A DNA stretch of 64,000 bases from a virus, in the IMG/VR virus record IMGVR_UViG_3300014348_000112, positions 16,820 through 80,819 of that record; one strand, 5' to 3'. How positions within the stretch are numbered: position 1 is the stretch's first letter; each line of letters starts with the position of its first letter. Under the pieces are notes generated by a model. That model was not told where the DNA came from. It did no database searches and saw only the letters and a program-made list of their open reading frames with translations. The translations under genes and the position numbers were made by a program. Shown here one piece after another: positions 5,411 through 48,191 of this stretch.

Positions 5411-6469
5411 ATGAATCCCGACGTTGCGCAATTTGAAGCCCTTGGCAAGGAACTCCTGCGCCGCTGTCTCGCCGAGGAGGAGCCGGCCGACCTGCACGCT
5501 TGGGCGACACAGGCGCTGGCCCACATCGGCGGCACGACCGACGCCAGCGCGGTCTTGCGCTGGAAAGACAGCTTCACCTATTACGAGGAACTCTTGCGCC
5601 AGCGCGCCGCAATGGCCCTCCTGCCGCCTGATCAGCGCCGGCAGATCGACTGGCCCTGGGCCTCCTGGAACCGGCTGATCAGTCCCATGAAGCCGGGGAT
5701 GCTGGCCAGCATCTCTGCCCCGGACGGCGAGGGTAAGACCATCGTGGTTGAGTGCCTGGCAGAACATTGGGCGGCGCGCGGCCACCGGGTTGCCTTTGTC
5801 CACTACGAGTTGAACCGCGAACTGATGATGGATCGGCGCACCGCGCGCCATACGTCCATCGTTGTGCGAATGCTTGAGTCTGGTATGCTCACGCCAGAGC
5901 AAGAGGCAATTATTCAGGCCGTGCGCCCCCGACTTGAGGCGTGGGAGGGCGAGATCAACTACGTCCACACCCCCGGCTGGACGATGGAGCAGACTGTCGC
6001 CGAGCTACGCAGGCTGCGCGAGGAGGGCTTGTGCGACGTGGTGGTCATCGACTACCTGGAGAAAGCATTTGCCAGCGCGCGCCAACTCAAGATGTACGGC
6101 GCCAACTACTGGCTGCGTGAGGCCGACAACGTAGAGATGCTCAAGAGTTTCGCCGAGAGCGCCAAATTGCCGGTCATCATGGTGACGCAACTAAACAAGG
6201 CCGGCAAGACCATCGAGGCGGCCAAGATGGATCGCAGTGACATCGGTGGTTCCGGCGAGAAGTCCACCAAAGCAAATCTGGTGGTGCTACTGAAGCGCGA
6301 GACGAACGCCGACGGCAGCCGGTCCAACGTCGTCCGGGTGCGCATTGACAAGAACACAATGGGCGCGGACGGCGCCTTCGTGCAGTACATGCAGCCGGAG
6401 TTCTTCCGGCTGGCCGACATCCACGAGGCAGGCAACAACAACAATGGACGATCTCATACAGCGAATTGA
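5411..6469 (+). CDS. DnaB-like replicative helicase (SF4)
   Basis: Walker A ISAPDGEGKT, Walker B VVVIDYL, IMVTQLNK and VRIDKN motifs. Confidence 0.85.
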   Translation: MNPDVAQFEALGKELLRRCLAEEEPADLHAWATQALAHIGGTTDASAVLRWKDSFTYYEELLRQRAAMALLPPDQRRQIDWPWASWNRLISPMKPGMLASISAPDGEGKTIVVECLAEHWAARGHRVAFVHYELNRELMMDRRTARHTSIVVRMLESGMLTPEQEAIIQAVRPRLEAWEGEINYVHTPGWTMEQTVAELRRLREEGLCDVVVIDYLEKAFASARQLKMYGANYWLREADNVEMLKSFAESAKLPVIMVTQLNKAGKTIEAAKMDRSDIGGSGEKSTKANLVVLLKRETNADGSRSNVVRVRIDKNTMGADGAFVQYMQPEFFRLADIHEAGNNNNGRSHTAN

Positions 6470-37383: not shown

Positions 37384-37715
37384 CGTCTCAACCTCTCGAC
37401 ACCTTCATGCGCCACCACGGCCAGGCCGCTCGCCGCCAGCACCAGCCTCAGCCAGTACACGGGGGTCAGCGGAAGCGCCAACAGCAGCGCCGCCCAAAAC
37501 GACATGCACCACACGCACGTCCACAGCTCGGCCACGGCGTTCGTCGCCACCTTCGTCGCCTCCGGCTGGCCGTCGTTGCCGCGCGTCACCACCGAGCGCA
37601 CGCCCAGGCGGTAGCGCAGCCGACTGAAGACCGCGCCGGGGCCGTCCTCGTTGACCAGCATGTACGCCAGCCGCCAGGAGGCCAGGCCCAGGATCACGAA
37701 GTCAAGCGTCGTCAC
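37380..37715 (-). CDS. DUF1360-like membrane protein
   Basis: LASWRLAYMLVNEDGP...ELWTCVWCMSFW pattern. Confidence 0.65.
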   Translation of the reverse strand: MTTLDFVILGLASWRLAYMLVNEDGPGAVFSRLRYRLGVRSVVTRGNDGQPEATKVATNAVAELWTCVWCMSFWAALLLALPLTPVYWLRLVLAASGLAVVAHEGVERLRR

Positions 37716-37917
37716 GATTAGGTTCCTTCTCGACCGCATAGGCCCACTCGCCATCGGCAAAGACGCCCACAGTCGTGACGCGCTGGCGGCGGGAGGCATC
37801 GGCGCCGCTGTAGCTCAGCACCAGCGCGCCGTCGTCCAGCGCGAAGGTGTTGGCCTCCACGTTCTCCAGCGGCTCCAGCTCGCCGATGGCGTTGCGGAAG
37901 TAGACCTGGATGGTCAT
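37702..37917 (-). CDS. Hypothetical protein
   Basis: ATGA coupling. Confidence 0.6.
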   Translation of the reverse strand: MTIQVYFRNAIGELEPLENVEANTFALDDGALVLSYSGADASRRQRVTTVGVFADGEWAYAVEKEPNRDDA

Positions 37918-38117
37918 GGGCCGGCCTCGTTTCTTGCCTCGAACTGGATGCCGTGGTCGCCAGGGTAGGGCTGGCGGTGGTCGTTGTCGCCCAGCCAGAT
38001 CGGGGCCGGGATGCCGTCAGGGAAGGCCGCGCAGAAGGGCGCCGCGCCCTCGGCAACGTGCCGGCAGAAGGTGCAGACCGGGCTGAACGGAACCCGCATG
38101 AGATCGTCAAGAATCAC
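37914..38117 (-). CDS. Small Cys/His protein downstream of the JAB cassette (candidate partner)
   Basis: CTFCRH...CAAFPDGIP...HRQPYPGDHGIQFE; overlaps the JAB gene stop. Confidence 0.68.
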   Translation of the reverse strand: MILDDLMRVPFSPVCTFCRHVAEGAAPFCAAFPDGIPAPIWLGDNDHRQPYPGDHGIQFEARNEAGP

Positions 38118-38928
38118 GGTGCGCCTCTCTTGTGTAGGTGAACGGGCAGGCGGCGCCCAGGCGGTCTTCGATTGAGACCCAGACCTCGTGCCAGAAGCGG
38201 TCGTTGACGTACTTGAGCGTGCTGCTGTCAGCGTAGTACGACAACTCGCTGACTTCGCCTGAGTAAACCTGGGGGAAATACCGGCGTCTCTGCTCGGTTT
38301 CCGCTTCTCTGATCATGCCGGCCAGGAGACGCCACTGGTCGTTGTCCAGCTTGCCGGACTTGTTGTGCATGATGTGGACATAATTAGCTGTCACGGCGCG
38401 TATCTCAGCCAGGCCCGTGCTAAACAGGGCCCGAGCGTCCGCTGGAGAAAGCGATGAGTCATACTGCGGGTGGTTGTGGGTCAGGGTTGCGCCAGGGAAC
38501 TGCGCAGTCTCAGAAAGAGACCAGTTAATGGAACTTGCGTCTCCTCGCTTGGTAAAAAGCAGCTTGCCGTCGGCGTTAAACACGGCGCCGATTTCCCATG
38601 TGGGAGCGAGGAGCCTTAGCTTTTTCTCAAAATTATCCAAAGCCATGTTTTCTTCAGCCTCTAAATCGGCGAGGCGCTGCAACTCTACTCGCCGTTGCCT
38701 TTGATCTTCTTCCGCCCTCCATATCGCCATCGCTTCTCTGTCATTCACCGCATTGGCGTAAGGATCGACGCTACCGCCTGCCCCATCCTTCGGCGCGAAC
38801 TGGCCGCCGCGCGGGTCGCCGGCTGGGTGGCGGTTGACGCGCGACTCGTCCCACGCCTTCTCTTGCGCGCGCCGCTCGATCCCGGCAAAGCCGAACGCAT
38901 CCCGCAGGTGGGCCAGTTGGTCGCTCAT
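38107..38928 (-). CDS. Tag-bearing JAB/MPN+ (JAMM) metallo-isopeptidase-like protein
   Basis: QEKAWDESRVNRHPAGDPRGGQF tag variant; WEIGAV...HNHPQYDSSLSPAD fits H-x-H-x7-S-x2-D. Confidence 0.75.
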   Translation of the reverse strand: MSDQLAHLRDAFGFAGIERRAQEKAWDESRVNRHPAGDPRGGQFAPKDGAGGSVDPYANAVNDREAMAIWRAEEDQRQRRVELQRLADLEAEENMALDNFEKKLRLLAPTWEIGAVFNADGKLLFTKRGDASSINWSLSETAQFPGATLTHNHPQYDSSLSPADARALFSTGLAEIRAVTANYVHIMHNKSGKLDNDQWRLLAGMIREAETEQRRRYFPQVYSGEVSELSYYADSSTLKYVNDRFWHEVWVSIEDRLGAACPFTYTREAHRDS

Positions 38929-39995
38929 TTCGCACACCACTCCTTGACCGCCTCAATCACCAGCCCCTGCTCGGCCTCGCTCATGCCGGCGAACATAGGC
39001 AGCGTCACCATGCGTCGCCACTCGCGCGCAGTCACCGGCGGCGTTGGCTGGTCGGCATAGGGCTTGTACAGGGTCAGCGGCTTGTAATGCACGCCGGCCG
39101 AGATGCCGCGCGCCAGCAGGTGGTCGATCAGGTCGTTGCGCCGCTCCGGCTCGGTGCGCACCACGAACAGGTGCCAGATGTGCTCTGCGCTCCAGGCCGG
39201 CAGCTCCAGGCCCGTCCCGTCCAGCTCAGCCATGTAGCGCAGGGCGATGGCCGTGCGCTGCTCCAGCATTTCGTCAAAGCGCTCCAGTTGTGCCAGGCCG
39301 ATGGCCGCCTGGATGTCGTTCCAGTGGCACTTGTAGCCGATCTCCTCGATGCAGTAGTCCCGGCCGTAGCGGTTCTGGCTGCGCTGCCAGGTGTCTCGGT
39401 CGATGCCGCACCACCTGAGCGCCCGCAGCCGGCTGGCCAGGGTCTCGTCGTCCAGCAGGATCGCGCCGCCGTCGCCCGTGGCCAGCGGCTTGACCGGGTG
39501 GAAGCTGTAGCACACGAAGTCGCCGTAGTGGTTGGGCAGCAGCGGCGCGTGGGCCGCATCCTCGATCACCGGCAGGCGCCAACTGCTCCAGGCGCTAGTG
39601 GCCGGCAGGCCGGCGTAGTCCACCGGCACGATGGCCTTGGTGGCGGGCGTGATGACCTGGGCCACGTCCTCCGGGTCCAGGCACAGCGTCACCGGGTCTA
39701 CGTCAGCGAAGACCGGCCGCGCGCCGGTGTAGGAGACGACCAGGGCGGTCGAGACGAAGGTCAGCGCCGGCACGATCACGTCGTCGCCCGGCCCCACCCC
39801 GCAGGCCAGCAGGCTCAGGTGCAGGGCCGCCGTGGCGCTGTTGACCGTGACGCAGTGGGCATAGCCGGTGCGGCGCGCCAGCTCAGCCTCGAACTCGGCG
39901 CAGCGGGGGCCGTTGCCCCACCAGCCGCTGTTAAGCACGTCCAAAACCGCAAAATTTGCGGATTCGCTGGTGGATGGTTGTAGAAGTGGGATCAC
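38925..39995 (-). CDS. DegT/DnrJ/EryC1/StrS-family PLP sugar aminotransferase
   Basis: GTG start after GGAGG; VNSATAALHL, VIEDAAH, YSFHPVKPLATGDGG. Confidence 0.92.
   Translation of the reverse strand: MIPLLQPSTSESANFAVLDVLNSGWWGNGPRCAEFEAELARRTGYAHCVTVNSATAALHLSLLACGVGPGDDVIVPALTFVSTALVVSYTGARPVFADVDPVTLCLDPEDVAQVITPATKAIVPVDYAGLPATSAWSSWRLPVIEDAAHAPLLPNHYGDFVCYSFHPVKPLATGDGGAILLDDETLASRLRALRWCGIDRDTWQRSQNRYGRDYCIEEIGYKCHWNDIQAAIGLAQLERFDEMLEQRTAIALRYMAELDGTGLELPAWSAEHIWHLFVVRTEPERRNDLIDHLLARGISAGVHYKPLTLYKPYADQPTPPVTAREWRRMVTLPMFAGMSEAEQGLVIEAVKEWCAK
39943..39965. promoter_or_regulatory. Operator-like palindrome, copy 4, inside the first DegT codons (copy 5 at 41631-41653)
   Basis: The - strand reads (g/a)aatccgcaaattttgcggtttt and encodes SANFAVL. 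Confidence 0.6.
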
Positions 39996-40171
39996 GCCGG
40001 CCTCCTGCGCAAGATAGCGGCGATGGGCTTGGCTTCTTTGGCTTCCACCGGACGCGGCGTACCTAGCAAGAAAGCGTCGGCGGGTATGCCGTCCTGATCC
40101 TTGCTCTGATGCTGTAGCGCAATCAGCCAATCGGCGTTACGGTCGTCTTCTGTAATCAAAATCTCACTCAT
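39992..40171 (-). CDS. 59-aa NADWL partner peptide downstream of ART (not in the ORF track)
   Basis: Hand-translated MSEILITEDDRNADWLIALQHQSKDQDGIPADAFLLG...PIAAILRRRPA; overlaps both the ART stop and the DegT start. Confidence 0.65.
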   Translation of the reverse strand: MSEILITEDDRNADWLIALQHQSKDQDGIPADAFLLGTPRPVEAKEAKPIAAILRRRPA

Positions 40172-41366
40172 ATCGTCTGATAACCTCCCACGGGTGGTCT
40201 GCTAACCACGAGCCGTGTACTACCGCTTCGTTTACCGCGAAAGCACCAAAGCCAGTCGTCCAATGCGAAAAAATCGCCTTGACAGGGACACGAACACCGA
40301 AAACAAGACCTACTTCGCCGTGCTTGCGGTGTAGAGCGAACTGGCTGGCTGAGTACGCGTTAGCGGAAAACGAGGACAAGGGGCGGGGCTTCACCGCTAC
40401 CTTTTCGCCTCTTACTGCGTTGCTCAAGTTCGGGTGTTCCGCTTTTGACAAGATCATGCCGCGATAGAGCACAACCTCGTCTTCGGGTTTCAGCCCTTGA
40501 GATTTGAAAAACTCTTGAGTTCGCCGATAGACAGAGTCATACGCTTTTTGCGCTTTGCTGTTCGTCTCGCGGTCTTTCTCTAGCAAAGCCGCAGCATTTG
40601 TTATGTCGTCATTGGTGCTCATGGATGCAGTTCTCTGCGCCCGATCCCATGCAACGGATTGCAGATGATCGCGTTCCTCGCCAGCCCATGCACCCCAATA
40701 GGCTTGAAACCTCCAGGCGTCGGGCGAGCCGGTGTCTTGCTTGAGAGCATTTACTCCGTCGTACCACATCCTCTCCCATTCACTTTCTGGCAAAGTTCCC
40801 GCATCAAACAGTGTCCTTTCTTGTTGCGAATAGAACGATCCATCAGCGGGGGCCAGATCGACAAAAACACCGTGCCAACCAAGAGCATCGCGGACGCTGC
40901 TTTTTGTTATGCGTCGCTCTAGGACGTTCTCAAGATTCGGTTCATCAAAGTCAGAATAGATGTACGATCCTGAAGCGTCTTCTCCTGCCTTTACAAAGCC
41001 AAGATTGTCCTTGTCTAATCGAATTTCTAGTATTCCGCCCCTGGTGCCGTCTAGATGGGAGTACCGAACAATCAGCATCGTTTTGGTTAGGTCTTCGTTT
41101 TTTGCAACTTGACCAACAGAGATTTCGGCGCTGTAGCCATCAACAGCAAAAAAGCTCAGAAAGTCGTTCGCGGTTTTAGCCTGCGCGCCAATGCCAACAC
41201 AATCCTTCCAAAGCAAAGATGCTTCGTCGTTTTTGAACACGGCTTTTGCGCCGCCACCCTCCGCCGCCCACTGCCCGCCGCGCGGGTCGCCGGCCGGCAC
41301 GCGCGGCTGATCCGGGTTGAACTTCTTCTCGGCCACCGAGACCTTGACGACGCGCAGGGTGGTCAT
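40164..41366 (-). CDS. Tag-bearing ADP-ribosyltransferase-like protein (variant catalytic loop)
   Basis: AEKKFNPDQPRVPAGDPRGGQW tag; LYRG...PRPLSSFS...FGAFAVNEAVV; AT-richer body. Confidence 0.75.
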   Translation of the reverse strand: MTTLRVVKVSVAEKKFNPDQPRVPAGDPRGGQWAAEGGGAKAVFKNDEASLLWKDCVGIGAQAKTANDFLSFFAVDGYSAEISVGQVAKNEDLTKTMLIVRYSHLDGTRGGILEIRLDKDNLGFVKAGEDASGSYIYSDFDEPNLENVLERRITKSSVRDALGWHGVFVDLAPADGSFYSQQERTLFDAGTLPESEWERMWYDGVNALKQDTGSPDAWRFQAYWGAWAGEERDHLQSVAWDRAQRTASMSTNDDITNAAALLEKDRETNSKAQKAYDSVYRRTQEFFKSQGLKPEDEVVLYRGMILSKAEHPNLSNAVRGEKVAVKPRPLSSFSANAYSASQFALHRKHGEVGLVFGVRVPVKAIFSHWTTGFGAFAVNEAVVHGSWLADHPWEVIRRYE

Positions 41367-41683
41367 TTTCGTATCACCACCGATCCGGTCTGCCCAAACA
41401 CGCCAGGCCGGCCCAGCGCCTCGCCGTACTCCTGGCAGGCGCTCAGGAACTCGCCATAGTCCAGCCAGCACTGCCAGATGCCGGTCTCCCGGTCCAGGTG
41501 CTGGTCGCCGTTGCCGAACCAGGTGGCCACGTACAGCACCTGTCGCGCCGCGCCGGCCAATTGCGCCAGCTCAGCCTCGAACTCGGCGCAGCGCGGGCCG
41601 TTGCCCCACCAGCCGCTGTTCAGCACGTCCAAAACCGCAAAATTTGCGGATTTGCTGGTGGATGGTTGGAGGAGTGGGATCAC
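41363..41683 (-). pseudogene. In-frame chimera of the DegT N-terminus and the methyltransferase C-terminus
   Basis: VIPLLQPS...AEFEAELA is joined to QLAGAARQVLYVATWFG... at the 8-bp microhomology GCGCCAGC (41563-41570). Confidence 0.75.
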
Positions 41684-41877
41684 GCCGGCCTCCTGCGCAA
41701 GATGGCGGTGATGGGCGCGTCTTTCTCGACCGGCGCCGGTGGCTTGGGTAGAAACGGCATGGTCTCCCATAGCGGGCGCAGGTCGTCCTCCGGGCCGGCT
41801 GCCTCGTCCCAGAACCATGCGTCGCTGCCGCCTACGTGGCCTTCCGGCGTGTTGATCAGCTTTTGTTCCTGAGCCAT
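41680..41877 (-). CDS. 65-aa GSDAWFW partner peptide downstream of GNAT (homologous to the MuF N-terminus)
   Basis: GSDAWFWDEAAGPEDDLRPLWETMPFLP versus GSDAWFWSAALEPEDTIRPYWETMPFLP at 59004. Confidence 0.72.
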   Translation of the reverse strand: MAQEQKLINTPEGHVGGSDAWFWDEAAGPEDDLRPLWETMPFLPKPPAPVEKDAPITAILRRRPA

Positions 41878-42698
41878 AGCTTGCCTCTCCATGATCCGTG
41901 GCCGGACTTGTCCAGCATGAACGCTTTTCCTGCCTCGTAATCGCCCGGCTTGATGTCTGGATTCTCGATGGCCGTGTGCGGCAGCTTGACACCAGGGATG
42001 CGGTAGTTGGCCACGTCCTGCGGCGTCCTGAACCGGGGCCATCCGCCGGGCGGTTGATTGATGCCGTTTCTCCTGGCCCATGACAGGAACTTACCCGAAG
42101 CCTGCCGCGCGTCGTTGTTGTCGCTGTACTGAAAGCCTTGCTTTGCCCAGGCGTAGCGCCCAATCGAGATGTCAGCCTGCAATCGGATTTGGTCAACGGT
42201 CGTTTCTTTCGTCAATATCTCGATCTGCCTCTTGTACAGGTCTTGAGCGAGACCACGGTTCTGGAACTTTTGCGCAAAAACCAGTTCATCGTCCAGGCAA
42301 AAAGCTACGTCGCGGTCAAACATGAACTCTCTTTTGCTATGGCCGATTCTTTCTTTTGTGGCCGGGTCTGTCCATTTCGTTTCAATCGAGAGAGTGTTGT
42401 AATCCCGGTTTCTGCCAATGGTGATGCTCGTGTCATAGCCGGGAAGCGAAAGCATCCTTTTGATGTGGTCTTTGGTCATACCGAAACGTTGAAGTTCGTT
42501 GTCCTCATAACCCTGAGCAAAGTCCTTGACCTTGACCGTCACCTTGCCCTGGGGATGGCCAACAGGCGCAGACTCGCTACCTGCGCCACCCTCCGCCGCC
42601 CACTGGCCGCCCTGCGGGTCGCCGGCCGGCACGCGCGGCTGGTCGGGGTTGAACTTCTTCTCGGCCACCGAGACCTTGACGACGCGCAGGGTGGTCAT
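41856..42698 (-). CDS. Tag-bearing GNAT-like acetyltransferase protein
   Basis: AEKKFNPDQPR tag; KFQNRGLAQDLY...IRLQADISIGRYAWAKQGFQY. Confidence 0.68.
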   Translation of the reverse strand: MTTLRVVKVSVAEKKFNPDQPRVPAGDPQGGQWAAEGGAGSESAPVGHPQGKVTVKVKDFAQGYEDNELQRFGMTKDHIKRMLSLPGYDTSITIGRNRDYNTLSIETKWTDPATKERIGHSKREFMFDRDVAFCLDDELVFAQKFQNRGLAQDLYKRQIEILTKETTVDQIRLQADISIGRYAWAKQGFQYSDNNDARQASGKFLSWARRNGINQPPGGWPRFRTPQDVANYRIPGVKLPHTAIENPDIKPGDYEAGKAFMLDKSGHGSWRGKLWLRNKS

Positions 42699-43426
42699 TT
42701 TCGTATCACCACCGATCCGGTCTGCCCAAACACGCCAGGCCGGCCCAGCGCCTCGCCGTACTCCTGGCAGGCGCTCAGGAACTCGCCATAGTCCAGCCAG
42801 CACTGCCAGATGCCGGTCTCCCGGTCCAGGTACTGGTCGCCGTTGCCGAACCAGGTGGCCACGTACAGCATTCGCCGCGCCGCGCCGCGCCGGCCAATTG
42901 CGCCAGCGCCGGCCGCCAATCGGCAAGGTGCTGCAAGACCTGGAAACACAGCACGTTGTCGGCGCTGGCCGGCTCCAGGGCCAGGATGTCCAGCGCAGTG
43001 AACGCCACGCCGGGGTAGTTGGCCCGCGCCAGCGCCAGCATCTCCAGCGACGAGTCGCCGCCGCGATAGGCCCGGCCATCCAGCAGGCCGGCGTCCCGCA
43101 GTGCGCCGTACATGCGCCCGGACCCGCAGCCCGCCTCCAGCACGTCGCCCGGCGCTAGGTGAGGGCGCAGGTCGTCGCACAGCGCGCCACGATGCGGTGA
43201 TGTTCGCCGTCCCCAGCACCAGCGCCTCGTCGTTGGCGTCGCCGCCGTAGGTGTTGTCACCGCTGATGGCCAGCCCGTCGATCTTGCGCAGCTCGTCCAG
43301 ATAGCCGGCGCGCGCCGCGGTCAGTCGCGTCTCCAGGTCGTCCACACTGGTCTGGAGCGCCAGCCCGTCCTGGACCTCAGCCGCCGTTAGGTCGTCTTCA
43401 GTCTCGTACCAGTTGATGGACGCCAC
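42695..43426 (-). pseudogene. Class I SAM methyltransferase disrupted by two compensating frameshifts
   Basis: VLEAGCGSG / GGDSSLEML / VLCFQVLQHL lie in a different frame from both the N-terminus and the C-terminus; extra CGCGG unit at about 42865-42892. Confidence 0.7.
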
Positions 43427-43428
43427 GG

Positions 43429-44046
43429 TCACGCTCCCTTCACCACCACGTAGCGCACGGCCATGCCCGGCTCCAGCGCGATTTCCTGGTAGCCCAGCAC
43501 CTCGCCGCACTCGGCCAGGCCCTGCTCCATCGCCTGCAAGCTCACCACCTGGCCGTTGATCAGCTCGGCCGGTCTGCCGTACAGCACCGAGAACAGGTAA
43601 GCGCGCGCCGGCCACTTCTCGACGATGGCCTTCAGCAGCGCCATCGGGGCGTGATAGTGCCGGCTGGTGTCGATGCTCAGCAGCACGTCAGGCCGTTTCG
43701 CTTTGGTGTAGGGCGCGCCGGCGAAGATGTCCCGCTGTTCGATGGTCACGCCCTCCTCGCCGCCGTAGGTAGCGACGGCCTCGGCCAGCAGGCGCTCGCT
43801 GATGTCGTATCCGGCGTAGCTGGTAAACTTGGGCAGGTACTCGCGCACCACCGGCACGTAGCGCGCCGGGCCGCAGCCCAGGTCCACAACGCGCTTGGCG
43901 TCGCCGCAGAACATAGCCAGCAGGCCGCAGGCCGTCGTTTCCTCGATCTGCTTGGCGTTGCCCTGCTTCCACAGGTCGATCAGGTTCTGGCTGCCAACGT
44001 CGGTCGTCCACTCCTGGTAAGCCAGGTCATAGGGTTGAATGGTCAA
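43429..44046 (-). CDS. Class I SAM-dependent methyltransferase (small-molecule/sugar type)
   Basis: RVVDLGCGPARY, YAGYDISERLL. Confidence 0.85.
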   Translation of the reverse strand: MTIQPYDLAYQEWTTDVGSQNLIDLWKQGNAKQIEETTACGLLAMFCGDAKRVVDLGCGPARYVPVVREYLPKFTSYAGYDISERLLAEAVATYGGEEGVTIEQRDIFAGAPYTKAKRPDVLLSIDTSRHYHAPMALLKAIVEKWPARAYLFSVLYGRPAELINGQVVSLQAMEQGLAECGEVLGYQEIALEPGMAVRYVVVKGA

Positions 44047-44993
44047 GATAGCAACTCCTCATACAGCGCCTTGTAGGTTGGCGCCACGATCTGCCAAAGG
44101 TGCCGGCGTTCGATCAACCGCCGGCCAGCCGGCCCCAGCGCCGCTTTGTTCGCCAGCGCCCGGTCCAGCGCATCAGCCAGGCCGCGCACGTCGCCCGGCT
44201 CGACCAGCAAGGCCACATCTCCGGAGATGTCCGCTACGCCGCCCCAGCGGTAGCCGATCACCGGCACGCCCTGGTACAGCGCTTCCATGTGGCCCAAGCC
44301 GCTGGACTCGCAGAACGTCGCCAGGTACACGTCGCTTTCGGCCAGCAGGGCCTGCATTTGCGGGTACGGCAGCCGGCCCACGCAGCGCACGTTCAACGGC
44401 AGTTCGTAGCCCAGCCATCTCTCGATCTGCGCCGCTTCGGCGGTCAGCACCACAACGGCCTCCGGCCGCATCCTGGCCAGCTTCGCTGCCGGCGCAGGAT
44501 CGCGCAACACGTCGATGGCGTTCTTGTTCCAGATCACGACGGGCCGGTCTTCAGCCTTCAGTCGCGCACGCCAGTAGCCGGTCGGCTCGATGCCGCCCTC
44601 GTCCAGGTCGATAGCTTGGTCGATCCAGCGCGCCTGGACGCCGGCCAGTCGCTCGACCTCGCGCACCATGTAGCCGCTGTTGACCACAACGACGCGAGCC
44701 TGCTGGATGGCTTGCCGCATTACGTCGTTCTGCTCACGCCACCAGCCGGGCGCGTCTTCCGGGTAGAGATGCACCGGCCAGATGTAGTCGATGGTCTGCA
44801 CGTCGGTATCGGGCAGGCAGTCCACCCCCACCACATGCACCAGGTCCGCTTGCGCCCGGTCAGCCACTGTCTCCACGCCCAGGCGCGCCAGGTACTTGGC
44901 GCGCGAGAGCGTGGAGTGGTTAGGGCCGCCAGGGGAAGACGCAAAGCCGGCCTGAGCAGTGGCCAGCGGTGGGTAGGTCCAGATGCGCATCAC
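44043..44993 (-). CDS. Glycosyltransferase family 4 (GT-B)
   Basis: SDVYLATFCESSGLGHMEALYQGVPVIGYRWGG (E-x7-E). Confidence 0.88.
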   Translation of the reverse strand: MMRIWTYPPLATAQAGFASSPGGPNHSTLSRAKYLARLGVETVADRAQADLVHVVGVDCLPDTDVQTIDYIWPVHLYPEDAPGWWREQNDVMRQAIQQARVVVVNSGYMVREVERLAGVQARWIDQAIDLDEGGIEPTGYWRARLKAEDRPVVIWNKNAIDVLRDPAPAAKLARMRPEAVVVLTAEAAQIERWLGYELPLNVRCVGRLPYPQMQALLAESDVYLATFCESSGLGHMEALYQGVPVIGYRWGGVADISGDVALLVEPGDVRGLADALDRALANKAALGPAGRRLIERRHLWQIVAPTYKALYEELLS

Positions 44994-45085
44994 TCAGAGC
45001 CTCGCCACAAACTCACCGGCGCCGGCTGGCGCAGCACCTTGCGCCGCAGCCAGTAGCGCCACTGCCAGGCCGTCCAGTGTCTCAT
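44990..45085 (-). CDS. 31-aa Trp/Arg-rich peptide (not in the ORF track)
   Basis: MRHWTAWQWRYWLRRKVLRQPAPVSLWRGSE; start and stop overlap both neighbours. Confidence 0.35.
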   Translation of the reverse strand: MRHWTAWQWRYWLRRKVLRQPAPVSLWRGSE

Positions 45086-45459
45086 TGGGGTGCCCTCAGA
45101 TTGGGATAGCGCATGGAGGGCCAGTTGATGGTCGCTTCTCCGTAATTCTCACCGATTTGCACGGCCCCGATCACGTCGTATGGGCGAGTAGCAGCTTTTA
45201 CCGCATCTTCTTCAGTGAAGAATACGCCCATGATTTCGACTCCGTCTTCGTAGCCGGCGATTTCGCCTTCTGGCATCCTGATCGTTAGCCATACCTGGGA
45301 AATTTGATCCAGTACGTCGCCGCACACGGCTACCATGAGCCGGCCATTGGCCGTGCTGGGATCAAAGGCCCGCGTCTCTTTGCGCGTCTCGTAGCCGAAC
45401 TCTGGCGCGCGACGCTCATAGATTTCGTGGAACAGCGTAGCCAGTTCTAGTGCTTTCAT
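45082..45459 (-). CDS. Hypothetical protein
   Basis: ATGA coupling; AT-richer than its neighbours. Confidence 0.65.
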   Translation of the reverse strand: MKALELATLFHEIYERRAPEFGYETRKETRAFDPSTANGRLMVAVCGDVLDQISQVWLTIRMPEGEIAGYEDGVEIMGVFFTEEDAVKAATRPYDVIGAVQIGENYGEATINWPSMRYPNLRAPQ

Positions 45460-48191
45460 GCGGGCACCACCTGGAAGGTACTCGTCATGGTCGCGAACCA
45501 GTCTGCATCGTCGCGCATGACCTTCTTCAGCGGGTCGGCCAGGCCAAAGCGGTACATCATGCCGCTGGGCGCCTTGAAGGTCTGCGACCCCACCGAGCCG
45601 CCCACGTAGCGCACCAGCACCAGGGCGTCAGCCCCGTTGGTGGGCATAGCCGCCGCGTTGATCGCGCTCCTCGTTTCTTGGACGCGCGGCGCAGCCGGGA
45701 TGGCCGCCGCGCCTCGCTTGCTGCCACAACATGCCATGCTAAACTCTCCTCGATAGATGGCCGGGTGCAGGCGCCGGATAGTCTCCTGCAAGGCCGGCTT
45801 GTTGTCGTTGGCCGTGTGCCGCATCTGGTTGGCCGAGTGTTGGCGATACCAGAAGAGCGGCTCCGGCACCCGCACGCCGCAGATGCCGATCTCGCCCAGG
45901 GCGATGACAAACTCCCAATCCTCCCAGCCGCCCATCCTGCTCATCACCGGCTTGTAGCCGCCGACTTGCAGCCAGGCGTCGCGGGCGTAAAGGATGGTGC
46001 AGGCGTGGGTGATGCGGTTGAGCAGGTTAGCAAACACGTAGTCCTCTGCCGCCAGCTCCTGCTCCTTGTCGTCGGCCGGCCACCACAGCACCGAGTCGCT
46101 GTAGGCGTAGTGGCGCGGGTTCTGCTGGATGGCCGAAAGGGTCTTTTCCAGGAAGGCCGGCGCCAGCTTGTCGTCGGCGTCCAGCGGCACGATCCAGGTT
46201 CCGCGCGCCTGGTCGATGCCGGCGTTGCGCGCGGCCGCCAGCCCCAGGTTGCGGTCGTTGGTCACGAGGCGGACCAGGCCAGCCGGATAGCTGTCCACGA
46301 TCTCGCCGATGGCCGTGGCCTCCGCCGGCTCGTTGCCGTCGTCTACCACCACCACCTCCAGGTCGGGCCAGCTCTGCGCCAGCGCGCTGTTGATGGCGGT
46401 CTTGAGGAAGCGGCTGTGCTTGTAGCACGGGATCACCACCGAGGCCAGCGGCGGGTAGATGTCCCGATGGTGGCTGTTGACGATGGCCCGCAGGCGTTGG
46501 ATGTGGGGCTGCGACTCGTGGTCCCGGCCCTCCTGCCACAGCTTGCGATACCAGAACAGCGCGCCCGGTATGCGCCGGCCGTGCCAGCCCAGCTTCCCCA
46601 TGTTCAGCCACAGCTCGTAATCCTCCCACGAGGGGTTGATGTCCTTGTAGCCGCCGGCCCGCTGAAAGGCGGTGCGCCGGAACAGGTTGCAGCAGGGGAT
46701 GAAGTTGCCGTGCGTCAACCGCTCAAACTCGTACTCACTGGCCAGCACCGTCCCCTGCCAATAGCCGCTGTCAGGCCGCATCCCAAAGGCCATCATGTCG
46801 GAGTACGCGATGCCCAGGCCGGGGTCGGCGTCCAGCGCGGCGCTCAGGCGGGAGAGGAACAGCGGGTCGATGCGGTCGTCGGCGTCCAGACAGCAGATGT
46901 ACTGCCCCTGGCTGGCGGCGATGCCGTTGTTGCGCGCGGTCGCCACCCCGGCATTCTCTTGCGCAATGACCCGCACCGGCACGCCGTCCACTACCTGCAA
47001 GGGCTTAAATGCCGCATTCAACCCCTTGCTCTTGACGTTTTGCATTCCCAACGCGCCCGCAATGGCCTGTAGGGAGGCGTCCTTGGAGCCGTCGTCCACC
47101 ACCACCAGCTCATAGGCCGGCGCCTGGCGCTGGCGCAGCACGCTCTTGATGGCCTCGCCGACGTAGGCCGCTTTGTTGTAGCACGGAATCACCACCGAGA
47201 CCTTGGGCCGGCCCGGCGCGCGCTCCCTCTCCCGCTCCTCCAGCGCCCGCTCGTAGACGGCCAGGAGGCGTTCTACGGCATGATCCAGGGTAAACATACG
47301 CTCGACGCGCTCACGCCCTTCCTGGCCCATCCTGGCGGCGCTGGAGAGCACTGTATCGAGTTTCTCGACCAGCCGGCCCATGTCGCCCGGCTTTACCAGC
47401 GCGCCGCAGGCGTCGGTGACGGTCTCGGCCGTGCCGCCGTGGCGATAGCCCAGGATAGGCTTTTGCAGGGCCATTGCCTCCAGCACCTGGATGGCGTGGT
47501 TTTCCTGCACCGTCGCCAGGTACACGTCGCAGTCGGCCAGCGCAGCCTGCATGTGGCGGAAGGGCTGCGGCCCGATCAGGTGCATGTTCTTGGGCGCGTG
47601 CGGGATCGCGCCTTTCTGCAATAGCGCAACCACGGCGATGTCGGGCCGGCGCAGGGCCAGCTCAATGGCCGGCGTTGGGTCCAGCACGTCCGACAGGCCC
47701 GTCTTGCCCCACAGCACCAGCGGCGTCTCGGCGGTGATGCGCAGGGCCGCCCGCAAATGCCCCGTGGGCACGTTCTCCCACTCAGCCAGATCAACGCCGT
47801 TGTAGATCACCCAGGTGTCGCCGGTGGTCTCCTTGGCGCGCGGGTCGCCGGCCGGGTAGCGGCCCACCAGCCGGCCCCACTGCTCCGCCGTCCACTGCGA
47901 GACGGCCACTACCTGGCGGGCCTGGCGCAGGTTGTCGAAGATGGCCTTGTTGGCGTCGATCTGCCACTGCGCCATCTTGGCTTTCAACGGGTACACGCCG
48001 TGGTTAGTATATATGTCAACCTGTGGCGCGCGATCCATCGCGTGGCAATGCACCAGCGCCTCGCCGTCCGGCTGCGCGACAATCTCCCAGCCGCGTTGCT
48101 CCAGGGCCTGGGCCAGCTTGTTGACGTGGATCATCACCCCGCCGGCGCCGTTGGCGTTGGGGGCGGGGAGGAGGCAGACGCTTCTTGTCAT
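45456..48191 (-). CDS. Tri-domain glycosyltransferase (GT4 + GT2 + GT2)
   Basis: QENHAIQVLEAMALQKPI (GT4), then two SVVIPCY...VVVDDG...(C/P)LDADD GT2 domains. Confidence 0.9.
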   Translation of the reverse strand: MTRSVCLLPAPNANGAGGVMIHVNKLAQALEQRGWEIVAQPDGEALVHCHAMDRAPQVDIYTNHGVYPLKAKMAQWQIDANKAIFDNLRQARQVVAVSQWTAEQWGRLVGRYPAGDPRAKETTGDTWVIYNGVDLAEWENVPTGHLRAALRITAETPLVLWGKTGLSDVLDPTPAIELALRRPDIAVVALLQKGAIPHAPKNMHLIGPQPFRHMQAALADCDVYLATVQENHAIQVLEAMALQKPILGYRHGGTAETVTDACGALVKPGDMGRLVEKLDTVLSSAARMGQEGRERVERMFTLDHAVERLLAVYERALEERERERAPGRPKVSVVIPCYNKAAYVGEAIKSVLRQRQAPAYELVVVDDGSKDASLQAIAGALGMQNVKSKGLNAAFKPLQVVDGVPVRVIAQENAGVATARNNGIAASQGQYICCLDADDRIDPLFLSRLSAALDADPGLGIAYSDMMAFGMRPDSGYWQGTVLASEYEFERLTHGNFIPCCNLFRRTAFQRAGGYKDINPSWEDYELWLNMGKLGWHGRRIPGALFWYRKLWQEGRDHESQPHIQRLRAIVNSHHRDIYPPLASVVIPCYKHSRFLKTAINSALAQSWPDLEVVVVDDGNEPAEATAIGEIVDSYPAGLVRLVTNDRNLGLAAARNAGIDQARGTWIVPLDADDKLAPAFLEKTLSAIQQNPRHYAYSDSVLWWPADDKEQELAAEDYVFANLLNRITHACTILYARDAWLQVGGYKPVMSRMGGWEDWEFVIALGEIGICGVRVPEPLFWYRQHSANQMRHTANDNKPALQETIRRLHPAIYRGEFSMACCGSKRGAAAIPAAPRVQETRSAINAAAMPTNGADALVLVRYVGGSVGSQTFKAPSGMMYRFGLADPLKKVMRDDADWFATMTSTFQVVPA
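46998..47028. repeat. Second copy of the TT(G/A)AATGC-C-GCATTCAA palindrome, inside the GT2 coding region
   Basis: caaggg-c-ttaaatgc-c-gcattcaa-c-cccttg. Confidence 0.75.

Follow-up and report, generated by a model that had tools for sequence, protein, structure and literature searches.

How does a phage come to carry two alternatives of one gene cassette side by side? Phage mosaicism and the turnover of anti-host effectors are usually reconstructed from end products; the locus described here appears to preserve an intermediate within one genome. We analysed a window of 64,000 nucleotides (nt), bases 16820-80819 of the 101,006-bp IMG/VR viral contig IMGVR_UViG_3300014348_000112, which was assembled from a metagenome, is classed as linear and is estimated to be complete. 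The phage is ~101 kb long and comes from bioreactor or wastewater samples. An earlier note on this DNA had described two cassettes in tandem between a methyltransferase (MTase) gene and a DegT gene, each with a tagged enzyme gene and a partner gene; one enzyme is of GNAT type and the other of ADP-ribosyltransferase (ART) type. The tag at the start of both enzymes is ~38 amino acids (aa) long, the partners are small, and DegT is a sugar aminotransferase. We conclude that the tandem is real DNA, and that it probably represents two alternative two-gene cassettes of one hypervariable slot, brought together by one illegitimate, microhomology-mediated join of two alleles. All genes discussed lie on the - strand, and positions are those of the window.

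Two cassettes and the junction between them

The array begins, on the - strand, with a class I S-adenosylmethionine (SAM) methyltransferase gene, MTase2 (42695-43260; Pfam Methyltransf_11/25/12), which forms the left flank of the slot, and ends with a full-length DegT/DnrJ/EryC1-type sugar aminotransferase gene with a GTG start (38925-39995; Pfam PF01041, E 2.8e-96), which forms the right flank. Between them lie, in order, a tagged gene for a GNAT-fold protein of 280 aa (41856-42698), the gene for its 70-aa partner 1 (41680-41892), a 106-codon open reading frame (ORF) that fuses parts of DegT and MTase (41363-41683), a tagged gene for an ART-fold protein of 400 aa (40164-41366) and the gene for the 59-aa partner 2 (39992-40171). 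The ORFs and the repeats described below confirm this order, and with it the two tandem cassettes of the earlier note. Starts and stops overlap throughout the array (ATGA, GTGA and ATGAGTGA): the GNAT-gene ATG overlaps the stop of the MTase C-terminal frame (ATGA), partner 1 overlaps the GNAT 3' end, the chimera GTG overlaps the partner 1 stop, the chimera TGA overlaps the ART-gene ATG, and the partner 2 ATG overlaps the ART-gene stop. No - strand terminator was predicted in 37500-45500, and matches in a sigma-70 promoter scan were not above chance.

A direct-repeat search of 37500-45500 recovered two repeats. The core of repeat A pairs 41252-41551 with 42584-42883 (300 nt, 97% identity) and, beyond a 5-nt complex indel, continues to 41570 and 42907, respectively. 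Copy A1 (42584-42907; 324 nt) consists of the MTase 3' end and the first ~38 codons, the tag, of the GNAT-fold gene, with the indel near its 5' end. Copy A2 (41252-41570; 319 nt; 95.4% identical to A1 including gaps) consists of the MTase 3' end and the tag of the ART-fold gene, without the indel, as in L019, a contig from a related phage. Repeat B pairs 39875-40035 (B1) with 41563-41723 (B2) over 161 nt at 94% identity, or 95.5% over an alignment of 154 nt. Both copies hold the DegT ribosome-binding region and 40 codons of DegT, which in B1 are the first codons of the full gene; B2 is nearly identical to L019. The repeats abut at an octamer, GCGCCAGC (41563-41570), that is common to the DegT 5' and MTase 3' regions, so that repeats of ~320 nt and 154-161 nt do meet at 8 bp of microhomology, as had been claimed.

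At the octamer, the N-terminal 41 aa of DegT are fused in frame to the C-terminal 65 aa of MTase. Pfam identifies the 5' part of this ORF as DegT (positions 5-40, E 2.2e-4), and tblastn with the L019 MTase identifies the 3' part as the last 65 MTase residues, in agreement with the DegT/MTase chimera of the earlier note. The chimera is a recombination scar that preserves translational coupling, since the fusion is in frame. We scored all possible joins of the DegT 5' region with MTase2; for random MTase/DegT junction pairs, the probability of a microhomology of at least 8 bp is 8.7e-4, and we therefore consider the join to be microhomology-mediated rather than blunt. MTase2 and the DegT 5' region share 58 stretches of at least 8 bases by chance, of which the junction octamer is one.

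GC content is 47-55% in the cassettes and 67-73% in the flanks, with steps that coincide with the repeat edges. On one side, the module border falls at the end of the tag, and on the other ~36 nt before the start of the next gene, which gives clean borders to an uncharacterised class of tagged GNAT/ART effector-partner pairs. A1, A2 and L019 align up to the tag end (...AAEGG) and are unrelated beyond it, such that a conserved segment switches sharply to variable sequence at a fixed motif. The tandem had been taken as direct evidence that cassettes swap at the tag. This does not hold, since the join lies in MTase and DegT coding sequence, not in the tag; support that cassettes may swap there is only indirect, and comes from the homology between alleles, which ends at the tag end, the left edge of the variable segment. 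Both partners end in PI(T/A)AILRRRPA, a similarity that the earlier note had also pointed out. The last 11 codons of each partner gene lie in repeat B, which extends ~40 nt upstream of the DegT GTG; hence, the shared C-termini are a consequence of the repeat and provide no independent evidence.

We compared contigs from four public runs with 39000-44000. A 584-nt Logan contig from run X1, a bioreactor metagenome, matches 41314-41897 with 0 differences (k=31, depth 5.6) and reaches >240 nt to either side of the junction. The tag/ART border (41173-41330) and the tag/GNAT border (42474-42627) are bridged by further X1 contigs. A 1806-nt JGI contig (L024) is colinear with 41932-40127, a range that takes in partner 1, the chimera, all of the ART gene and the beginning of partner 2; it has 6 single-nucleotide polymorphisms (SNPs) relative to the window and no gaps, and encodes the exact chimera protein. 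An ENA contig (L025) encodes an identical chimera. By the criterion of the earlier note, the tandem would be an artefact if the junction lacked spanning reads; the X1 contig, L024 and L025 all cross it, and we conclude that the tandem is real DNA and not an assembly error. In these comparisons, we regarded joints whose sides measure 21-27 nt as cross-matches, either of the tag or of GC-rich DNA from other organisms, and the interval 41898-42473, which is without contig cover in X1, was not taken as evidence. X1 depth per contig (2.4-7.7) is too coarse for a comparison of cassettes with flanks. Runs X2-X16 have small word shares with the window and were excluded from naming habitats and from counting holders of the junction.

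L024 and L025 begin at the same base (window 41932) and have 2 SNPs in their first 35 nt, and the last 28 nt of L025 (window 40146) are unlike the window. In the sample behind these contigs, other alleles may branch off at two places, the 3' end of the GNAT gene and the interior of partner 2.

Related phages and the origin of the tandem

The earlier note had proposed comparing the MTase-DegT interval in related phages. Megablast of 38000-45000 against the INPHARED phage collection gave no match, and exact-protein look-ups showed that the GNAT protein, partner 2 and the long partner 1 ORF of the window are not on record. A DegT-based search found no related loci among viral contigs and, among metagenome contigs, only relatives at 54-60% identity. 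Two long loci of such relatives that were scanned (L011 and L012) are without tags, and in two more distant DegT relatives (L026 and L027) a short-chain dehydrogenase gene directly precedes DegT, with no tag at all. Searching with GNAT homologues identified L019-L023, Logan assemblies of one wastewater series. L019 and X3, the latter a 31-kb contig from another study, carry an intact 192-aa MTase, a tagged GNAT gene, a 70-aa partner of the partner 1 type and DegT, without the ART cassette or the chimera; their flanks are 96-97% identical to those of the window, and their GNAT proteins share 56% aa identity with ours. L017, a 102,443-bp contig with the same synteny, carries MTase, a tagged ART homologue (408 aa), a 60-aa partner and DegT, with no GNAT cassette at this position. 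Its flanks are 74-84% identical at the nt level (84% in the adjacent DegT flank), and its ART protein (P0018; 34-36% aa identity) is the only distant ART homologue with context. Since relatives show each state, the slot exists empty, with GNAT only, with ART only and, in this phage, with both, and the route by which cassettes are gained and lost becomes directly testable. The head-to-tail flank repeat with a novel joint at short identity is found in the tandem, and the joint is absent from the single-copy loci of L019/X3 and L017. With the junction in three other assemblies and each cassette type single in relatives, the idea that two alleles of one slot were joined by microhomology is supported.

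We propose that the tandem formed from two copies of the locus with different alleles, one MTase-[tag-GNAT + partner 1]-DegT and the other MTase-[tag-ART + partner 2]-DegT, which may have belonged to co-infecting relatives or to units within one concatemer during replication. Through one illegitimate exchange at GCGCCAGC, a chance octamer of the DegT 5' and MTase 3' regions, the two copies would yield a product that keeps both cassettes, duplicates ~320 nt of the MTase 3' end and tag together with ~160 nt of the DegT start, and leaves the 106-codon in-frame scar ORF, with start/stop overlaps maintaining coupling through the array. The product would be metastable: recombination between A1 and A2 would remove the GNAT cassette and recombination between B1 and B2 the ART cassette, each loss regenerating a single-cassette form as seen in relatives. 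The cassettes themselves would be low-GC imports, encoding a GNAT-fold acyltransferase and an ADP-ribosyltransferase-like enzyme of the R-S-E type that are probably virion-delivered, host-modifying effectors, with each small partner binding its own enzyme as an inhibitor or immunity protein or as a docking peptide. Between relatives, the cassettes are far more diverged than the flanks; given also their low GC content, this is as expected of imported, often replaced cargo.

Differences between the repeat copies bear on this proposal. B2 differs from GNAT-only L019 at ~2 sites, whereas B1 differs from both at ~7; the DegT fragment beside partner 1 thus resembles its counterpart in a genome with the GNAT allele, which fits a one-step join. 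Several points weigh against the proposal. At the differing sites of repeat A, L019 agrees with A2, beside ART, and not with A1, which carries the derived changes including the complex indel; this comparison of three sequences shows only that A1 is derived, and adds no support for a two-parent model. The order of events is unreadable from one genome, and duplication followed by replacement yields the same map. X1 Logan contigs do not cover the GNAT gene body over its full length, and L024 and L025 stop at 41932; given this partial coverage, only the window's own contig shows the complete tandem from one end to the other. The window may itself have been assembled from the X1 sample, and X1 hence provides independence at the level of reads, not of samples. 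No deletion derivative was seen in the same sample, although contigs cannot show rare variants; the earlier suggestion that recombination between repeats could delete either cassette is sound as reasoning, without such a form having appeared. Finally, virion packaging, enzyme activity and the roles of the partners are inferred.

The strongest alternative is that duplication came first: an unequal sister exchange at the same 8-bp microhomology would have created two like copies, one of which was later exchanged for another allele through homologous recombination with a different phage; the arms would have been the tag/MTase end and the start of DegT. Besides giving the same final map, this order of events draws support from the relatives, where GNAT is 56% identical at the aa level and 80% at the nt level (3' half only) next to flanks at 96% nt identity, and ART is 34% identical at the aa level next to a DegT flank at 84% nt identity (74-84% across the flanks). 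Since cassettes are so much more diverged than flanks, allele replacement inside conserved arms clearly occurs in this group. However, two events are needed rather than one, and no relative with two like cassettes is present among the homologue loci found. Moreover, differences between the copies start ~20-40 nt from the junction in repeat A and span the whole of repeat B, so that a replacement tract would need almost the whole of these short arms. We therefore consider duplication before replacement unlikely, and continue to favour the one-step join of two alleles.

A dedicated recombination system, integron-like or shufflon-like, that inserts cassettes at a defined site would make the tandem a normal product. 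Tagged genes do occur at several places in the genome (the tag motif is found 11 times in the window), slot content differs between relatives at several slots, and the tag recurs as a module delimiter inside large proteins. The junction, however, lies inside two ordinary coding sequences at a chance octamer, not at a repeated site, and the duplicated flanks are gene fragments. The repeat search found no notable inverted repeats flanking the cassettes, and no recombinase gene or attachment-like site, nor a recurrent site linked to a recombinase, was seen in 37500-45500. Without site repeats or inverted repeats, we rejected an integron-like or invertase-type mechanism, and regard a programmed system in general as very improbable. 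Least credible of all is that an assembler concatenated two population variants with shared flanks: the window is indeed a metagenome-assembled viral contig, depth in the best run is low (~2-8 per contig), and the 3-6% divergence of the repeat copies is what strain variants would show, but two such variants alone contain no B-to-A joint, a k-mer graph cannot produce one from an overlap of 8 bp, and the junction is present without differences on the k=31 contig from X1 and on two other assemblies with SNPs of their own.

The enzymes, their partners and the tag

The GNAT and ART labels, assigned earlier from sequence, are supported at the level of the fold. Neither gene matched Pfam at E<0.01, and at E <= 10 Pfam gave nothing beyond DRAT for the ART gene (E 0.038). 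PHROGs contains two families of unknown function that match the GNAT gene, and has no match for the ART gene or the partners. Residues 1-48 of the GNAT protein, including the tag, are predicted to be disordered. An AlphaFold2 model built from a 14-sequence alignment has a predicted local distance difference test score (pLDDT) of 77.9 overall and 85-96 in the core. Foldseek comparison of this model with PDB returned 53 matches at E <= 0.001, and the top 50 (E about 1e-4) are all GNAT acetyltransferases; NatD, Naa50, RimI, SpeG and a GNAT toxin are among the matches, with TM scores of only 0.35-0.49. The protein has a conserved FQNRGLA motif that resembles Q-x-x-G-x-A, as in the acyl-CoA-binding segment of the GNAT fold (Q/R-x-x-G-x-G/A). 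None of 17 homologues has a Pfam GNAT annotation (0/17). Given the low TM scores of the model and the lack of a Pfam match, the GNAT-fold protein appears to belong to a divergent family. The gene is itself mosaic in comparison with L019 (41856-42583 versus L019 9888-10606): its 3' half, from ~42238, is 80% identical at the nt level, and its 5' half after the tag is unalignable.

Partner 1 (GSDAWFW...WETMPFLP) has a homologue that adjoins the L019 GNAT gene. We modelled the complex of partner 1 with the GNAT domain and obtained a score of 0.78, as compared to 0.08 for the best control; the mark used for this score is reached by 58 of 80 solved complexes and by 2 of 110 mismatched pairs. Agreement of contacts from run to run was at least 77%, the pLDDT of the partner was at least 58, and the modelled contacts cover the most conserved GNAT segments. 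The modelling, as distinct from a measurement, thus supports binding of partner 1 to the GNAT domain. The partner 1 peptide (GSDAWFW...WETMPF) is also found as a MuF-like N-terminus in the window (58959) and in L016 (8846 and 6346), and these MuF N-terminal copies directly follow another GNAT-type gene. Since the peptide also forms a MuF N-terminus, partner 1 may serve as a docking peptide, either in addition to acting as an inhibitor or in place of it.

The C-terminal ~200 aa of the ART-fold protein resemble an ADP-ribosyltransferase domain of the R-S-E type. An exhaustive phmmer search identified 413 homologues. In an alignment of 21 of these, R113 (YRG), S143 (PLSSFS) and E191 are invariant, corresponding to the Arg/Ser-x-Ser/Glu pattern of the DRAT/C2-C3/Alt-like clade. 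Pfam DRAT, for which the protein itself gives only E 0.038, is matched by 4 of the 21 members (best 5e-9), one homologue lying above the DRAT threshold. The AlphaFold2 model has a pLDDT of 94.9, and its top Foldseek matches are ARTs: Vis toxin (3.2e-4), ExoS, ART2.2 and Rhs TreX. A comparison of the ART alignment profile with PDB sequences gave only helical-repeat matches, which we judged to be spurious. The copy in the window reads V-N-E where the family has E-x-E, such that the catalytic Glu is kept and the first position of the E/Q-x-E motif is lost; because of this substitution, the acceptor, or even the activity, may differ from that of the family. Partner 2 (DDRNADWLIAL...) has a homologue in the 60-aa gene that follows the ART-type gene of L017. 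In the window, L019 and L017, partner type tracks enzyme type.

The tag, ...EKK-F/Y-N-P-D-Q-P-R-x-P-x-G-x-x-x-G-G-Q-W..., extends over ~38 aa. Among phmmer matches of the ART protein, it recurs every 150-450 residues, up to 7 times, in metagenomic proteins of 1000-2700 aa (P0020-P0167), and it is mostly N-terminal in proteins of <500 aa (19 of 26). Hundreds of proteins with lengths of 1000-6000 aa match the ART domain and the tag of this gene, and both are shared with hundreds of metagenomic proteins. To judge from these positions, the tag behaves as a module delimiter. The tagged genes of the window lie in the same - strand gene run as MuF (58959).

Relation to known systems and neighbouring variable sites

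Orphan toxin/immunity modules are described for CdiA-CT/CdiI and Rhs-CT/RhsI arrays, in the accounts that these sources give of them (Poole et al. 2011, cited in PMC5576092; Zhang et al. 2012, PMC3482391). The tandem resembles such modules of contact-dependent inhibition (CDI) and Rhs systems in several respects. A conserved N-proximal segment runs to a short motif and is followed by a variable enzymatic domain and a small cognate partner gene, the pairing of variable enzyme and cognate partner being backed here by the model of GNAT with partner 1. In both cases, alternative modules with conserved upstream fragments stand in tandem, permitting exchange or loss by homologous recombination, and have a foreign base composition. 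In contrast to CDI and Rhs loci, the array belongs to a phage, where it shares its - strand gene run with head genes (MuF), and its duplicated flanks are fragments of unrelated neighbouring genes (MTase and DegT) that meet at a microhomology scar. Neither module is a silent orphan; since each has a complete start codon and a tag, both should be expressed. The conserved part is a ~38-aa N-terminal tag, which is all that precedes the enzyme domain, not a large delivery domain such as a CdiA filament, an Rhs/YD shell or MuF. Thus, the array works like a CDI/Rhs orphan module array but falls outside the CDI, Rhs and MuF-toxin families, since it has no large delivery domain and both of its modules are complete genes.

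Among head-packaged ARTs, Alt of phage T4 is the prototype. Polyvalent proteins of phages, for which packaging and injection are predicted, carry ART, GNAT, peptidase and kinase domains among virion genes, and some gammaproteobacterial phages encode GNAT next to ART within a single polypeptide (Iyer et al. 2017, PMC5512222). Downstream of a MuF toxin gene there is usually a small ORF that is presumed to confer immunity (Jamet et al. 2017, PMC5576092). The cassettes described here share with polyvalent and MuF proteins the ART and GNAT domains, the small downstream ORFs, and the matches of tag and ART to large multi-tag proteins. Unlike them, the enzymes are encoded by separate genes, each with its own tag and partner, inside a sugar-modification cluster, and neither is above its Pfam family threshold; packaging and injection are suggested here by context, through the gene run shared with MuF and a disordered tag that in giant proteins stands between domains.

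We offer, as a possibility to be held tentatively, that the tag is a general 'plug' of a modular phage effector system, combining a signal for capsid entry (or a mark for a processing site) with a DNA homology arm for exchange of enzyme plus partner. The tandem would then be a captured exchange intermediate, with the slot 'heterozygous in cis', kept because both effectors are advantageous, and the in-frame scar would have been selected for coupled translation. If so, modules could pass from phage to phage, and could move between stand-alone genes and giant polyvalent proteins.

As for the joint, it is a case of ordinary illegitimate recombination. When mediated by microhomology, such recombination is, like tandem duplication, a source of phage mosaicism and of 'moron' accretion in the view of Hendrix, Hatfull and colleagues, and the tandem shares with such mosaics a novel joint at a short chance identity in coding sequence, low-GC extra genes between conserved genes, and direct repeats that are substrates for later homologous deletion. 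Phage Rad52-like recombinases reportedly carry out relaxed homologous recombination (Martinsohn 2008; De Paepe 2014). Whereas joints are usually deduced by comparing mosaics that are already complete, one genome here still contains the scar together with the two alleles and the two duplicated arms, and single-allele relatives are available.

The left flank gene, MTase2, is split over reading frames. With the intact 192-aa MTase of L019 as tblastn query, its core maps to 43185-42877 and its C-terminal 58 codons to 42872-42698. Relative to L019, 2 nt are deleted near 43181-43185 and there is a complex insertion of 5 nt near 42873-42888, which together leave the SAM-binding core out of frame with the N-terminal stub and with the C-terminal 58 codons; the length changes by +3 overall, and a 306-aa ORF (42695-43615) stays open. 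Both indels are also present in X1 and X2 contigs, and so are not errors of the window assembly. The chimera retains the ancestral in-frame MTase C-terminus.

The place just after DegT is a second polymorphic slot beside the MTase-DegT slot. In the window, it holds a tagged gene (38107-38940; tag variant ...RHPAGDPRGGQF...) that is absent in L019 (11846-12400). At the same place in L017 (12473-14420) are a tagged ADPrib_exo_Tox gene with a 66-aa ORF, and a tagged gene of 314 aa with an HExxH-like motif. Another variable point of the sugar-modification cluster is the segment between its two MTase genes: the 225 nt of the window (43203-43429) correspond to 1302 nt in L019/X3 (L019 7968-9265), where the insert encodes a GT2 glycosyltransferase and an acetyltransferase. 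In L017, a 74-aa gene between the glycosyltransferase and the first MTase (5520-5744) has a precomputed Pfam match to Acb5 (PF26761).

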